From positions 185 through 64,184 of the IMG/VR virus record IMGVR_UViG_3300033128_000027: a stretch of DNA of 64,000 nt; one strand, 5' to 3'. Of the stretch, positions 33,286-46,820 are shown piece after piece (position 1 is the first letter of the stretch; each line of letters begins with the position of its first letter). Origin of the DNA: a virus. The notes beneath the pieces are model-generated. The model worked only from the letters and a program-made list of their open reading frames with translations, ran no database searches and was not told the origin of the DNA. The translations under genes were made by a program, and so were the position numbers.

Positions 33286-33794
33286 TGGGCTTATATGATG
33301 ACATCCTCAACACATTTATACATATTAGGAAAGATGAAGACTTATTAAGATTATTAACTCTTAAACCAGAGAATTTTGCTGAAGGTATTCCTGACCCCCT
33401 ATCCCCTACTCTACCAAATATTATAGACAAACCGCCTGAAGAATTATCTGATATTCAAAATAAGCATATTATGAAGTCAGTGAAAGTTGATGATTTGGAG
33501 CCTATAAAATTGTGCAGATTATTTATTTATCCAGGAAGAAGAACTCCTGAACGAAATAATTACGCTACTGCAGATCAAGAAATACATATTGATATACTAT
33601 GTCATGTTGATTATGAGAATGGAGATTTTCGTTCCTCTAGAATTACTGATAGGTTAAACGACTTACTAGTAAATGCAAAAGTTAAAGGTGTGTTTGGGAA
33701 ATTAGAGTATGTTGGTGGGAATATAATATCAGGTGTACCTAGAAATTATGTTGGTTACAAGTGCGTATATGAGTTTGGAAGTTTTAGAAAATGA
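33285..33794 (+). CDS. Tail terminator-like protein (YomW position)
   Basis: Synteny; IHIDILCH...ITDRLNDLL. Confidence 0.55.
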   Translation: MGLYDDILNTFIHIRKDEDLLRLLTLKPENFAEGIPDPLSPTLPNIIDKPPEELSDIQNKHIMKSVKVDDLEPIKLCRLFIYPGRRTPERNNYATADQEIHIDILCHVDYENGDFRSSRITDRLNDLLVNAKVKGVFGKLEYVGGNIISGVPRNYVGYKCVYEFGSFRK

Positions 33795-34531
33795 GTGATG
33801 ATCTGAAAATATTAAAAGGCTCCCCTATTCAGTTAATCGATAATATTTTTGTTCATCCTCTCACTCTCGGAGAAATCTCTGAATTGGGCGAAGATTTATA
33901 TGTTCTCTGTTTGAACGGATTATTAATGAGTAAAAACCACATACCTATTAACGAACTAAGTTATGAAGAAAGAGTTTCTCATTCCAAATTAACAGAATAT
34001 CAGTTTTTTATTCAGTTACTAGAAGTAGATTTGAATATGAGAGAAATTGTGACTAATGCAATTAGAGTCTTTTTAAGGACTGATTCATTTTTCGACGAAG
34101 CAACTAGAAATTTTTATTTAATTAATAATAACAACCATCTTCCTTTGAAAGAGGAAGATTTTTTACGTTTAAGAGATGTTTTATCTAAACAGAACTTCAG
34201 AAGTGATTCTGCTGAAAATTATAAACCTGCCAATAAAAAAGCTAACGCATTACTTGAAAGATTAAACAAAGTTAAAAGTGAAATTCAAAAAAAGACTGGT
34301 AATGACAGTTTAACTTTAGCAGATACAATTTCTATTGTTGCGAGTAATAGTAAAAATATTAGTATTTTAAATGTTTGGGAGTTAACAGTTAACCAATTAT
34401 ATCTTGAGTATTTAAGACTAGTGCTTTGGGACAACTATCATAACGATTATATCCATCTACCTCATATGTCTGAAAAAGATAGGAAAGAAATGAAGCATTG
34501 GGTAGTTGGTAATAATAAAATTAAATTATAA
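33791..34531 (+). CDS. Hypothetical tail-module protein (YomV position)
   Basis: Synteny. Confidence 0.6.
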   Translation: MSDDLKILKGSPIQLIDNIFVHPLTLGEISELGEDLYVLCLNGLLMSKNHIPINELSYEERVSHSKLTEYQFFIQLLEVDLNMREIVTNAIRVFLRTDSFFDEATRNFYLINNNNHLPLKEEDFLRLRDVLSKQNFRSDSAENYKPANKKANALLERLNKVKSEIQKKTGNDSLTLADTISIVASNSKNISILNVWELTVNQLYLEYLRLVLWDNYHNDYIHLPHMSEKDRKEMKHWVVGNNKIKL

Positions 34532-40293: not shown

Positions 40294-43200
40294 ATGTCAG
40301 ATTTAAAACTTAGAATTATAGGTACTTTGAATTCTAAAGCTACTATTACCGAAGTAAATAAAGTAATATCCAAAATAGAAAAAGATTTATCAAAGATTAA
40401 ACTAAATATCCAGCTTGATGATAAAGTAGCAAAGTCTCTTTCAGATTATGCTAAAGCTATGGAAAACTATAAGAATATCTCTTCTCAATTGAATAGAGTT
40501 CTTAAAGAAGAAAAAACAATTACTAAAGATGTGAATGGCGTTACAAAAGAAAGGATTTCTCAACAGTTAAAAAGTGGAGAAATTATTCAAAAAGAAATAA
40601 CTCGTCTTAATAATAAGAATAAAGCTACTCAAAAGGAAATCGAAAATACAAATAAATTACAAGTAGCGTATGATAAACTTGGTCAAAAACAAAAACAAGT
40701 CACTACTCAGACCAATAATGGTACTTCTACTTCTAATCAATTTAAGAATGGATTCACAAATACAACTGTAAATTCTAATGTTAATGGCGATGTTACCTCT
40801 GTTAAAACTGTACAGAACCTAGACCAAGAAAGAAAAGCAACTGAAACATTAATAAATAGTAAAAATAAATTAAAAGATACTCTTAGACTTTTAAACAGTG
40901 AAGGTAAAATATCTTCTGATAGTTTATCTAGATTAAATAATGCAGTTAATAGTGCTAAGAATATTGAACAATTAAATAGACTTAAACAAAACATTGATAA
41001 CGTTAATAAAGTTAGAGAAATGCAAAATAAGTTAATACTTGCTCAACGTGAAGCTGAATTAAAAGTAAATAACTTTAAAGCTAATTCTAATTTAAATTCA
41101 ACGCAAACAGCTCAGTTGAATGCTTACTTACAGTCAATAAACTCATTAACAGCTAGAACTCCTCAATTAAATCAAAGATTACGTGAAATGTCCTTAAGAT
41201 TTAATGAAATAACCTCAGAAGCAAGAAATGCAGGTGCTCAAGCTAGAACATTTGGAGAAAGAGTGCAATCGGCATTTAGCTTTATTTCAGTTGGCATGCT
41301 TACATATGGGGCATTTTATGGATTTGTTAATACTATTAAAGACATGACAAATCAAGTGGTTGAACTTGATACAAAAATGACCAATTTACGAAGAGTGATG
41401 GATTTACCAGACTATAAATTTAATGATTTAATGAAGGAATCTATTGCTCTAGGTGATCAACTCTCGAATAAAATCGGTGACATACTTGATATGTATGGCG
41501 GCTTTGGTCGTATGGGATATGATGAAAATCAGTTGACGGCTGTATCACGCACTGCTCAAATCCTACAGAATGTCTCGGATTTAACTCCAGATGATACTGT
41601 CAATACTCTTACTGCAGCAATGCTCAATTTCAATATAGCTGCGGAAGATTCTGCGCAAATTGCTGATAAATTGAACGAAGTCGATTAATTGTAGTCGCCT
41701 ATGTTAGTGATAGCATAGTGAAAACTCGGTGAACCTAGAAATCTAGGGTGTGTTCTGATGAACGCTAACGGTGAAACTCTAAGTCTGAAAAGATATGACA
41801 ATACCGTGCCAAGCTTGGAAGGAAACTTTCTTGAAGGTGTAACGACTAGAATATACCTCCTACGTCTTTTGATATGGAGATGAAATTCGTACTATATAAG
41901 TGAAATTCTTATATGGGAAGTGCCGAGGTTGTGATTTGATCACTACAAGAGATAGTCTAATCCCCTCTTAAAAATATGTGGAAACACAGGGTAAAAATGA
42001 ACAATTACGCAGTCACTACTCTTGATTTAGCAAATTCTATTCGTAAAGCAGGTAGTACTGCATCTACCTTCAATGTAGAATTAAATGATTTAATCGGTTA
42101 CACAACAGCCATTGCAAGTACCACAAGGGAAAGTGGAAATATTGTCGGTAAATGTCGAATTGCTGACATTAAATCTCTTCTGATTGACTTGGAACCCCTA
42201 ACGTTTAGACGAGGGAGACAGGGCGCAAGCGTAATTGCAGCGTGAACGACTAAGTGAAGAGACATTCTTAATAGAATGAAGCGATAGTCTGAACTTCTAT
42301 GGAGACATAGAGAGTAAGGTTGAAGTGCCTTACCGCCATATAATTAACTATGGTCAGTAACCTTTATTGGTGAAAGTAACAGAGTGAACTCTTTAAAAAC
42401 TATTTTCGCTAGATTAACAAATAATTCTCAAGCAATTGGTGCATTAAATGATATTGGTATTTCAATAAATGATGCTAATGGAAAACTAAAGCCAACTGGT
42501 CAAATTTTAGATGAGATTGCGGCTAAATGGAACACCCTATCTGATGCTGAAAAACAAAATGTGGGTGTAAAAGGTGCTGGCATGTATCAACTATCGAGGT
42601 TTAATGCCTTAATGAACAACTACTCGATAGCGCAAGAAGCATCTGAAACAGCAGCTAATAGTTTTGGCTCGGCAATGCGTGAACAAGAAAAATATTCAGA
42701 ATCTCTACAAGCTCGTATTAACCGCCTTTCTAACGCATTTACATCTTTGGCAGTAAGTGCTGGAGATGCACTAATATCTGATACTTTAATTGTGGCTACT
42801 GAAGAATTTGGTGACTTTCTAAAAACTACTGGCGATGTAATAGATGTAATTGGAGTATTACCTATTGTAATGGGAACTGCTGGTGTTGCAACAGTATTAC
42901 TAAGTAAGAATGTTCGAGGAATGTCTACTGCCCTTCTTACTGGAAATGTTTCTCTAGCTGGTACTGCAACTTCTTTATTTGGTTTGGAAGCTGGTATGTC
43001 AAGAGCAGCTATAGCTACTGCTGTATTTAAAACAGCATTACGTGGTTTAATGGTGGCTACTGGCGTAGGTGCTATATTAACTGTTTTAGGTTTTGCGATT
43101 GAGAAAATAACAAACCACTTTGCCGAAGCTAAACAAAAACAACAAGAATATGAACAAATTCAGAATACAACGGTTGAGTCATTAACAGCTAATAAACAAG

Positions 43201-46200
43201 CAACTGATGAATTATTAAAGAAATATCAAGAATTAACTGAAGCTAAAAACTCAGGCAGTTTTAATAGTGATAAAGAAAAAGAGTATTTACAAGTATCACA
43301 ACAACTTGCGGGTCTCCTCCCTTCTCTTGTTGATCATTATGACTCTCAAGGAAATGCTGTCTTAAAAGTTGGAGATGCACTTAAACAAGAAATTGAGTAT
43401 ACTAAAGAACTTGTTCGTCAAAAGAAAGAATTACAACAGGAAGAAGCTAAAGATAATATACAATCTGCATTAAAATCTGTAGATAAAATAGACAATAAAA
43501 TTGATAAAAAGAATCGAATTCTTGATCACAAAGCTGGAGTTAGTGGTGTAAATTATTCAGCCAAAGATAAGAAAAAGATTGAAATTGAAATTACTGAATT
43601 AAAACGTCAATACAATGAGCAACAAATGAAATTACGTGAAGAGTTGCAGAAAACTGTAGACTCTTATTTTACTGACATAACTATTGACACTTCTATTACT
43701 GCTAAAGTAAACAGTGTTATTAGTTCACTTGATGTTTCTGGTGCATCTGCTGAAGAATTAAATACTTTTGCAACCAATGTAGCTTCTGCTATGAAGAAAA
43801 TGCAAAATGCTGTAACTAATAATGATGAGAATGCATATAAGATTGCTAAAGCTGATTTAGATGATCTACTTACTTCTTATAATGTTGCTGAAGGTGGTTC
43901 AAGAAATCTAGAATTATCCTTCCAACAAGTAAAAGACAGTATAAATGGTGTTTCAGATGCAGCTAAAGGTCAAAAAGTCATTTGGGATGAGAATGGTGAA
44001 GTTGTCGGGGAAGTTTCGGGTGAATACGAAGATTTATCATCTAGACTCCAAGATGCTAAAGGTGATTTCGAAGCTATAAGAGATATCATACTTGAAACTG
44101 CTAAAGCTGGTGATTACCAAGCTGCTATAACAGCGAGTATGACAGACGCCTACACTTCCTTATCTGATGAAATTTCGCCACTCAATGATTTACTCGAAAA
44201 AACTGCTGAAGGTAAATCTATCACTTCTAATGAAGCCATGCAACTTATCGCTAAAGAAAAAGACTTGGCTTCTGCAATCAGCGTGGAAAATGGTCAAATT
44301 AAAATCAACCGAGAAGCAGTCCTTAAACTTCGTGATGCTAAAGTAGCTTCATATAAACAAATGATTGATGCACAAAAACGTGAAGTTCAAGCTCAATCGG
44401 AAGGTTTAAAAGTTAAACTTAAAAACTTTGGTGTTGAAGTAAAAGGTATTCTAACCGTTGCACAAGCAAATGAAGCGTTGGCTAAAGCTGAGGAAGAACG
44501 TGCTCGTAAAATGGCTGGATTAAATTCTGACCAAACTGGAGCTATGCACGGTTCTACTGTTGTTCAGAATCAATATGAAGGTATCACTTCTGGTATCAAC
44601 GACATTAAATCAGCATATGAGGCTCTAGACCAAATGTCCGCTATCGCTTCAGCAGGATTAACTGAAGTTGGCACATCTGCAGAATCTTCCTCTGATAAAA
44701 CAAGCAAAGCTAACGAAAAATCTACATATACAACTGATAAATATAAGCAGAAAATGGAAGAGTTAGGTCTTGCTTTAGCTAAAGTGGATAAAATTAAAAG
44801 TGAATATCCACAGCGTTCTAAGAAATACCAGGATGCAATTAAACAGGAAATCAAACTTAAAGAACAGCAATTGAAGTTAATGAATGCTGAAGTTAATAGC
44901 CTTAACAAGCAAATTAAATCAGGAAATATAGTTGCTAAAGGTACTAAGACAACTATAAGTACCACTTCCCCTTCTACTTCCAACTATGTAAGTGGAGGAA
45001 GTACTGAAGCGTCTGTTTGGAATTTCTTTAAGTCTAAAGGTTTCTCTGATTCTGCAACTGCTGGTATTATGGGAAATTTACGTCAAGAATCTGGTTTTTC
45101 AACCACTGCTGTTAATAGGTCATCAGGTGCTACTGGTATCGCTCAATGGTTAGGTGGGCGTTTAAGTGGACTTAAAAACTTTGCTGGATCTCAAGGTACT
45201 AGCTATACTAACCTTAACACTCAACTTGAATGGTTATGGAAAGAATTAAACGGTGCAGATCCTACAACAAAGTCCATCATTAATAAAAATGGTGGTATGA
45301 ATGCTTTCATGAATATGGGAGTTAACGATGCTGCCCTTCTATTCGAAAAAGCGTTTGAACGTTCAGGTGGTGATGCTCTAGGTAATCGTCAAAAGTATGC
45401 CAACAGTATATATACGAAATATGCCGGTACTACCCCTACTGGCTCAGCTAGTGCAGATACATCAAGTACTGTAGCAGATAAAGCACAAGCTATTGACCAA
45501 GCTAAGTCTGACGTATTGAGTATGCAAGAAGAAGCATTACAGATACAGCAACAAATCAACGATCTTAATATGGAGCTAGTTAACTCTGTTCTTGCTGGTA
45601 TCGGCTACAAAAAAGCTGCACTCGAAGATGACTTGGCGCAAATTGATCTTGTACAAAGTTATGAAACAGAGTCTTCTAATAAGTGGACAGATGCCCAACT
45701 AAAGAAAGAAAAGCTACTTCGTAAACAACTTGGTTATGAACAAGAAGCTATGAAGTATCTGAAAGAGCAAATCAAAAACAACAAAGCCTTAACAGAAGCA
45801 CAAAAAGCTCAATTATCAGATGATTTACTTCAACGTACTCAAGATATGATTTCTCTTGAAACTCAGCTATTAGACCAACGTAAGCAAATGGCTGATACGA
45901 TTGTCGATACTTACAAACAAGCTGCGGAATCTATTAAAGACACTCGTCTTAAGACAATTGATAAAATGATTGATGCAATTAATAAGAAAGATGATGATGA
46001 ATCATATGCAAAAGATTTAGCTAAGAAGCAAAGTGAACGTCAAAAGATATTAGATGATATTGCGAAATATTCTTTAGATGACTCATTTGCAGGTATCGCT
46101 AAAGTTAAAGAGCTGCAAGATCAATTGGCTGAAATGGATGAATCCTTAGCCGACATGCAATCCGACAGAGAAAAACAACTTAGAATCGATAATCTAAATA

Positions 46201-46820
46201 CTCAAAAGGATTCTATTCAAGAGGAATTTGACAATCTTGTAAATGATGAACGTAAGTTTGCTAAAATGCGCTCTGATATTATCAATGGAAATGCTAGTCA
46301 AATTCAAAAAGATTTGAATAAGTATTTCAGTAATATTAAAGCTAATTCTAGCATTATGGGTAAGGCTCTATCTAATAATCTAATAGATTTAATCAATCAA
46401 GCTAACCGATATTTAAACGGTAAAGATTATAAGCCTATTAAGATTGCTTCTGCAGCTAAAGGTGGAATATTGCCTTCTTGGGGTAATGAAGGCAAAGCAA
46501 TGGTTGTCCATGAAGAAGAAATGATCTCTACAAAACACGACACGAAGAATTTACTTACAGCTATGGAACAAGCTAAAGATTTGACCAGTTCTTTAAAAGG
46601 TTTAGAAGTTGGTAAAACATTAGCAAGTGCGGCTTTGAATTTACAGACAAGTTTTAAATTACCTACTATCCCCTCCCTTTCCTCTTCTGTATATACTGGA
46701 GGAGATAATCATTACCATGTAACATTTGGTGACTTGAAGGTGACAGGTGATCAAAACGGAGCTAAAACATTATTAAATACATTCGTTAACGGAGTAAGAA
46801 AATTAGGTGGAAATATTTAA
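40294..46820 (+). CDS. Tape measure protein, join(40294..41685,42000..42149,42387..46820), 1991 aa, with phage tail lysozyme domain
   Basis: Removing two introns gives DKLNEVD|NNYAVTT...RESGNIVG|NSLKTIFAR; lysozyme motif GIMGNLRQESG...GIAQW near 45000-45425; YomI position. Confidence 0.9.
41686..41999 (+). ncRNA. Group I self-splicing intron 1 (314 nt, no ORF)
   Basis: Exon ends in U, intron ends in G; IGS GTCGCCT with U.G pair; P10 TAATTGT/ACAATTA; P3 CTCGG/CCGAG; P7 GACTA(41844)/TAGTC(41953); GAAA-capped P9. Confidence 0.9.
42150..42386 (+). ncRNA. Group I self-splicing intron 2 (237 nt, no ORF)
   Basis: Exon ends in U, intron ends in G; IGS GCTGAC; P3 TCTCTTC/GAAGAGA; P7 GACTA(42248)/TAGTC(42285); P8 CATTCT/AGAATG. 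Confidence 0.88.

Follow-up and report, generated by a model that had tools for sequence, protein, structure and literature searches.

Introduction

Tape-measure genes of bacteriophages are established hosts of group I introns, and the closest described systems come from Bacillus prophages. In the Bacillus cereus group, Tourasse and Kolsto (2008; PMC2504315) found such introns at three tape-measure sites, with up to two introns per gene. They belong to subgroups IA1 and IA2, most of them lack a homing endonuclease gene, and related introns have adapted to different sites; the same survey lists a tape-measure intron in Lactobacillus phage JCL1032. In the Vibrio phage ICP1, Barth et al. (2023; PMC10448857) documented splicing of a tape-measure intron by RNA sequencing (RNA-seq) and reverse transcription PCR (RT-PCR), and described the tape measure as 'frequently interrupted'. 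For Bacillus phage SPbeta, the only introns mentioned in a review of that phage are those of the reductase genes. Here we analyse the tape-measure gene in a 64,000-nucleotide (nt) stretch of viral DNA, positions 185 to 64,184 of IMG/VR record IMGVR_UViG_3300033128_000027, which we call the window.

The window represents nearly all of its 64.2-kb record, which has an estimated completeness of ~49%, and its tail genes resemble those of SPbeta. We propose that its tape-measure gene, of the type of SPbeta yomI, is very probably split inside the domain PF10145 by two unrelated, endonuclease-free group I introns and spliced to an mRNA encoding 1991 amino acids (aa). The locus shares much with the introns TMP-IVS1, IVS2, IVS3a and IVS3b of the B. 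cereus group (PMC2504315): small IA-type introns, mostly without endonucleases, at several sites in the tape-measure genes of Bacillus prophages, no more than two to a gene, with related introns fitted to different sites via P1 and with presence/absence polymorphism. It differs in belonging to an SPbeta-like lineage with a YomI-type protein, in having its introns 150 nt apart inside PF10145, and in that one of them lacks P7.1 and P7.2. As in ICP1, a tape-measure gene, which is essential, is interrupted, and rejoining would take place at the RNA level; the ICP1 intron, however, contains a gene for an HNH endonuclease, and RNA-seq and RT-PCR have demonstrated that it is spliced. Short exons between neighbouring group I introns also occur in phage SIOphi and in Twort orf142, a tail tube protein gene with three group I introns. 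In Twort the introns resemble each other, whereas those predicted in the window, which are endonuclease-free, come from different families.

Results

Three open reading frames (ORFs) lie on the + strand at the tape-measure locus (40294-41688, 41976-42245 and 42384-46820). A reading of the letters without database searches, referred to below as the sequence-only reading, had proposed that they join in frame into a 1991-aa tape measure once 41686-41999 and 42150-42386 are removed. This proposal is borne out by homology. The joined exons (Table 1) encode 1991 aa with no internal stop, and in a BLASTP comparison with the uninterrupted YomI of SPbeta (2285 aa, L001) the product aligns without a gap over both junctions, ...KLNEVD|NNYAV... 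and ...SGNIVG|NSLKT..., which are the same residues in YomI. The Pfam profile PF10145 (phage minor tail protein) is likewise colinear over the three exons, and exon 2 is identical to YomI at 49 of 50 aa. The joined sequence would read GAT|AAC at the first junction and GGT|AAC at the second, and shifting either splice boundary by a single base breaks the frame or alters a conserved residue. To judge from these comparisons, the three ORFs are one tape-measure gene, a YomI homologue, of an SPbeta-like Bacillus phage or prophage. The spliced product, of ~220 kDa, is predicted to contain the junction peptides LNEVDNNYAVTTLDLANSIR at site 1 and ESGNIVGNSLK at site 2.

Both junctions are fixed by the YomI alignment, and the first is fixed independently by an intron-less allele. 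Contigs of a ~91% identical gene in two metagenomes match the window up to position 41685 and continue with AACAACTAT (encoding NNY); they represent an allele without the intron, and its junction falls on precisely the base predicted. Public assemblies also call an 82-aa ORF at window positions 41997-42245. It starts at an AUG made up of the final three bases of intron 1 and extends across exon 2 into intron 2, and it is an artefact that arose because annotation did not recognise the introns. A megablast search of 41000-43200 against isolated phages returned no match, exact-protein look-ups found matches only to the same element, and the sole locus matched in a contig scan with the start of exon 3 was from Lysinibacillus.

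Table 1. Predicted features of the interrupted tape-measure gene, and introns of related loci (window positions unless another sequence is named)
Feature	Location	Strand	Description
Exon 1	40294..41685	+	464 codons; aligns with YomI residues 5-473; PF10145 profile 6-85 at the C-terminal end
Intron 1	41686..41999	+	314 nt; IA-like group I, no endonuclease gene; opens with in-frame UAA, ends with G41999
Intron 1 internal guide sequence (P1 3' strand)	41692..41699	+	G41694 pairs with U41685
Intron 1 P7-to-P3' insert	41849..41919	+	71 nt; hairpins P7.1 and P7.2; equivalents in homologues
Exon 2	42000..42149	+	150 nt, 50 codons; most conserved PF10145 core; profile 87-132
Intron 2	42150..42386	+	237 nt; compact group I, no P2, P7.1 or P7.2; three hairpins after P9; ends with G42386
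Intron 2 internal guide sequence	42160..42168	+	G42162 pairs with U42149
Exon 3	42387..46820	+	1477 codons and stop; remaining PF10145 (profile 136-196) and PF18013 tail-lysozyme domain
Geobacillus virus E3 tape-measure intron	L002:5997-6294 (NC_029073 ~33508-33805)		Between coding sequences GP42 'N-terminal' and GP43 'C-terminal' in GenBank
L006 tape-measure intron	L006:2681-2983 (IMGVR_UViG_3300011497_000002, 132.6 kb)		In a YomI-like gene; close relative of intron 1
L005 introns	L005:2149-2411 and L005:3205-3410 (IMGVR_UViG_3300009410_000009)		In a homologous tape measure; Rfam 86 and 81.6 bits, above threshold
Intron-2 family intron, coat gene	L017:1494-1710 (MW202674.1)		Unannotated; gap between paired coding-sequence annotations
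Intron-2 family intron, reductase gene	L018:1495-1894 (Roseobacter phage CRP-118)		Unannotated; gap between paired coding-sequence annotations

We built the secondary structures of both introns by hand and checked each helix for canonical pairs by script. Both contain a group I core with the P3-P8 and P4-P6 domains, the P3/P7 pseudoknot and P9, all helices being canonical; the 5' splice site of each lies at a U.G wobble, the last nucleotide is a G, and P10 pairs with the downstream exon. The U at the 5' site (U41685 closing exon 1, U42149 closing exon 2), the terminal G, the internal guide, P3 and P7 had all been read from the letters in each intron, and they hold up when checked pair by pair. 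In intron 1, P1 has seven of eight canonical pairs, with the U41685.G41694 wobble at the cleavage site, and P10 joins 41688-41692 to 42001-42005 at the start of exon 2 (five of six pairs). P2 has 8 bp and a GUGA loop, P3 is formed by 41725-29/41923-27 plus 41763-65/41920-22, P4, P5, P6 and P8 are present, P7 is GACUA/UAGUC, and P9 carries a GAAA loop. Intron 2 has a fully canonical P1 (nine of nine pairs) with the U42149.G42162 wobble, a P3 of 7 bp, P4, P5, P6 and P8, the same P7 strands as intron 1, and a P9 with a GAGA loop followed by three further hairpins; P2 is absent. The minimum free energy of each marks it as more stable than shuffled controls (z = -2.40 for intron 1 and -2.46 for intron 2).

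The two introns differ in type. In the Michel-Westhof nomenclature, the hallmark of subgroup IA is a pair of hairpins, P7.1 and P7.2, inserted between P7 and the P3 3' strand. Intron 1 has both (P7.1, 41857-60/41876-79; P7.2, 41892-900/41908-916), and we would call it IA-like, of the IA2 kind, on the basis of this predicted structure; in intron 2 only 3 nt (42253-42255) separate P7 from the P3 3' strand, and we assign it to no subgroup. A long insert at this place in intron 1 alone was also what the sequence-only reading had described. Similarity between the two is limited to a 12-nt core motif, and they are evidently unrelated to each other. Scanning the window with the two P7 strand motifs revealed no introns beyond these, and neither carries the endonuclease gene of a mobile intron, the sole internal ORF (41758-41883, 41 aa) overlapping the P4-P7 core and being unsupported. 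Two additional hairpins, 41734-47 and 41752-63, lie within the 5' strand of intron 1 P3, and in the interval 41734-41763 structure is kept, and sequence is not, in all four homologues. We know of no standard name for a peripheral element in this position.

Several observations weigh against the reading of two introns that are spliced. When 41400-42700 was searched locally with the Rfam model Intron_gpI (RF00028), 42140-42312 scored 36.0 bits (E 3e-7) and 41676-41981 scored 28.0 bits (E 8e-5), both over the full model length and both short of the 50-bit gathering score; the Infernal search proposed earlier as a check therefore matched both inserts but placed neither above threshold. The whole window gave no Rfam match at the gathering threshold and none at E <= 0.1, the latter because neither intron survives the filters in a search of that size, and a search of the virus record with RF00028 returned no match. 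Short phage introns whose peripheral elements are unusual are known to receive low scores from the generic Intron_gpI model. Further points concern intron 2. Its P10 is weak, with four of six pairs that are not contiguous. It contains an internal copy of exon sequence (AAUGUCG, 42151-42157) that pairs at seven of seven positions with the guide at 42164-42170, and this alternative guide hairpin, which is not evident in a coat-gene homologue, could compete with P1 or else hold the guide after splicing. Ribosomes could also enter the intron 2 core, the in-frame stop (42243-42245) being 32 codons in. Finally, none of the sequencing runs that contain the region is on record as RNA, and one that had been guessed to be RNA but is probably DNA (X14) contains no splice joint over it.

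Relatives of both introns were found in other phages. In Geobacillus virus E3, an unannotated homologue of intron 1 interrupts the tape-measure gene at the same junction between codons (EVD|NNF). The two share this junction, P2-P5, P7, P9, the two hairpins in the P3 5' strand and P7.1/P7.2, but differ in the sequences of P6a and P8 and in their Intron_gpI scores (48.7 bits in E3 versus 28). No intron is present at the second site in E3, and none of the papers searched describes an intron in this virus. A close relative, in the YomI-like gene L006, lies 16 nt upstream of window site 2, inside the Ser codon of TRES|GN, and its P3 is compensated, CUCGG/CCGAG in the window being replaced by CUCUG/CAGAG; by these signs it is the intron 1 lineage, evidently retargeted through P1. 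A fourth homologue (L014) interrupts an unrelated host gene. In the RNAalifold consensus of these four introns, 29 of 60 pairs are compensatory, including pairs in P2, P3, P4 and both extra hairpins. When the spliced tape measure was compared by tblastn with at least 116 loci of the intron-1 core family, there was no tape-measure host gene among the matches listed.

Intron 2 has relatives of a different kind. Members of its family split a P22-like coat gene (MW202674) and the ribonucleotide reductase gene of Roseobacter phage CRP-118, and another lies in unannotated DNA of Nitratidesulfovibrio phage SRB7757; these introns share the P3-P7 core with intron 2, but their host genes are unlike. The coat-gene intron also conserves the tail that follows P9, and it is this tail that makes the Rfam match end 74 nt short of the true 3' splice site of intron 2. 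The intron-2 core motif occurs in 77 or more IMG/VR contigs. Of the 67 usable family members, 64 have a completely paired P3, with 14 distinct duplexes; on average 6.93 of 7 pairs form, whereas shuffling the partners lowers this figure to 5.27. Some of the relatives carry HNH-type ORFs. A weak 45-nt match (window 42171-42215, the P3-P5 region) adjoins the annotated intron in the major head protein gene of Tuc2009; this likeness is a weak link, and the Tuc2009 intron has an HNH endonuclease ORF, unlike its counterpart in the window. In a tblastn search of the 77 intron-2 family loci with the spliced tape measure, no tape-measure host gene was found. Each intron of the window belongs to a widespread phage intron family marked by compensatory base changes. 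The sequence-only reading had suggested independent acquisition from the difference in type, and we support independent gain because the introns are unrelated, have different relatives, and E3 has intron 1 alone.

Informative contigs came from four DNA runs, among which X5, a coded organism, has both introns. X5 and the window differ at 26 listed exon positions, 23 of them third codon positions, and every one of these changes is synonymous. The interrupted gene is therefore under strong purifying selection, which makes sense only with joined exons. Differences are distributed unevenly in X5. Over 678 nt of the block formed by intron 1, exon 2 and intron 2 there are 3-6 differences, whereas the flanking exons show at least 26 over 607 nt (Fisher p ~1e-4), a contrast tempered by its derivation from the assembled contigs of one run; the exon differences nearest the introns are 30 and 53 nt away. 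Because the block is far less diverged than the flanking exons, the pattern points to recent recombination in which diverged relatives exchanged the whole intron-exon 2-intron unit. Across X3, X4 and X5, the introns and exon 2 are <1% diverged and the flanking exons ~4-11%. Contigs in two metagenome runs join 41426 to 41659 and 42006 to 42160, with 30-32 nt on the shorter side; these joints may represent relatives with exons too diverged to align.

Other tape-measure genes are interrupted at other places. In the homologous gene L005, introns lie near residues 340 and 586 of the spliced protein of the window, and across relatives the PF10145 region has at least five distinct interruption sites within ~250 codons. 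All 25 of the SPbeta-type phage records matched in a phage collection have an uninterrupted yomI. In an attempt to place the B. cereus IVS1-3 sites on the protein of the window, pBWB404 was not among the plasmid-collection matches. A prophage tape-measure gene in Lysinibacillus zambalensis (NZ_JBEGDG010000007.1; L013:372-2565) is split near residue 369 by a 2.2-kb insert. This insert encodes a homing-endonuclease-like protein of 546 aa with DUF4379 zinc-finger and NUMOD1 domains, and it has no Rfam group I match at E <= 0.01.

The tape measure also differs from YomI near its wall-degrading module. The PF18013 tail-lysozyme domain occupies window positions 45003-45422 (exon 3 residues 873-1012), and YomI is annotated as a transglycosylase in some records. 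The alignment with YomI is lost from approximately residue 1437 and resumes only at residue 1550, and because of this interruption we suggest that the module may have been swapped relative to YomI.

Discussion

Our analysis points to removal of two group I introns from the late transcript of a YomI-type tape-measure gene. Each intron in the pre-mRNA would fold into a group I core in which the guide pairs with the end of the upstream exon, placing a U.G pair at the cleavage site. Free guanosine would attack the 5' splice site, and the released exon end would then attack after the terminal G. With both introns lost and the three exons ligated, the transcript would encode the 1991-aa tape measure. 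If the RNA remained unspliced, translation should end at the UAA that opens intron 1 and yield 464 aa, a consequence drawn in the sequence-only reading and consistent with the in-frame TAA at 41686-41688; if intron 1 alone were removed, it should end at 42243-42245. With a stop as its very first codon, intron 1 should keep its ribozyme free of ribosomes, a protection that intron 2 lacks. Because the internal exon copy pairs at all seven positions with the guide, splicing of intron 2 may be the more sensitive step. We rejected an intein or translational read-through, intron 1 opening with an in-frame TAA and the exon frame stopping after 32 codons in intron 2.

We do not claim protein-independent catalysis, because, among eight Bacillus phage introns that have been tested, four underwent splicing in vivo only (PMC11878797). 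It is conceivable, although unlikely, that the introns of the window are of this kind, leaving the RNA inside infected cells yet unable to catalyse their own removal unaided, so that a host or phage factor, or particular intracellular conditions, would be needed. The weak P10 and the competing guide hairpin of intron 2 would fit such a requirement. On the other side, the cores are complete, and the GNRA loops, at L2 and L9 in intron 1 and at L9 in intron 2, are typical of self-folding phage introns.

Much less credible is the view that the inserts are decayed relics that do not splice, leaving either a tape-measure pseudogene in a defective prophage or three separate polypeptides that assemble, after the genes-in-pieces arrangements of the homing-endonuclease type. 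Rfam scores below threshold, the lack of any run on record as RNA over the region, and a record that holds only ~49% of a genome are all compatible with decay. Yet every core helix is intact, and the uniformly synonymous exon differences come from an independent intron-bearing variant. Separate polypeptides are hard to reconcile with exon 2, which encodes the middle of a domain and has no plausible start of its own except the AUG that ends intron 1, or with pieces that abut against YomI with no residue gained or lost. Splicing of the three exons into a single mRNA accounts for these features and is the reading we favour.

A similarly slight probability attaches to exon skipping, in which exon 1 would at times be joined directly to exon 3 to give a separately functioning in-frame isoform of 1941 aa. 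Exon 2 measures exactly 150 nt, so the arithmetic of a frame-preserving product 50 aa shorter, raised in the sequence-only reading, stands, and skipping between neighbouring group I introns has precedents in Twort orf142 and phage SIOphi (PMC3073962, PMC11878797). Its biological relevance is what we doubt. The introns are unrelated, hence no hybrid core would form; the P10 guide of intron 1 pairs at five of six positions with exon 2 but at three of six with exon 3; and the 50 aa that would be skipped, with their near-identity to YomI, are the most conserved part of the protein. If skipping did occur, the isoform would be a second tape measure without the PF10145 core and would play a distinct part in assembling the tail or injecting DNA; group I introns from different families would then be splicing a virion protein in alternative ways.

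With splicing of all three exons as the favoured reading, the locus is a clean new example of the already known tape-measure group I introns and leaves the known picture unchanged. The sequence-only reading had stated that phage introns are best known in DNA metabolism genes, with some in late genes; late genes are indeed hosts, but introns in the tape measure itself are already well documented (PMC2504315, PMC10448857). Specific to this locus are the SPbeta-like lineage, the spacing of 150 nt, the combination of introns from two unrelated families and the signature of conversion. The low divergence of the block is a hint that phages still exchange endonuclease-free introns through recombination, a point that the 2008 survey did not settle.

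For annotation, the three ORFs of the window should be merged into one tape-measure coding sequence, and GP42/GP43 of E3 and several split coat and reductase genes need the same correction. More broadly, the conserved PF10145 segment is a repeated landing site for introns, and the SPbeta-like lineage joins the phages whose tape-measure genes host them.

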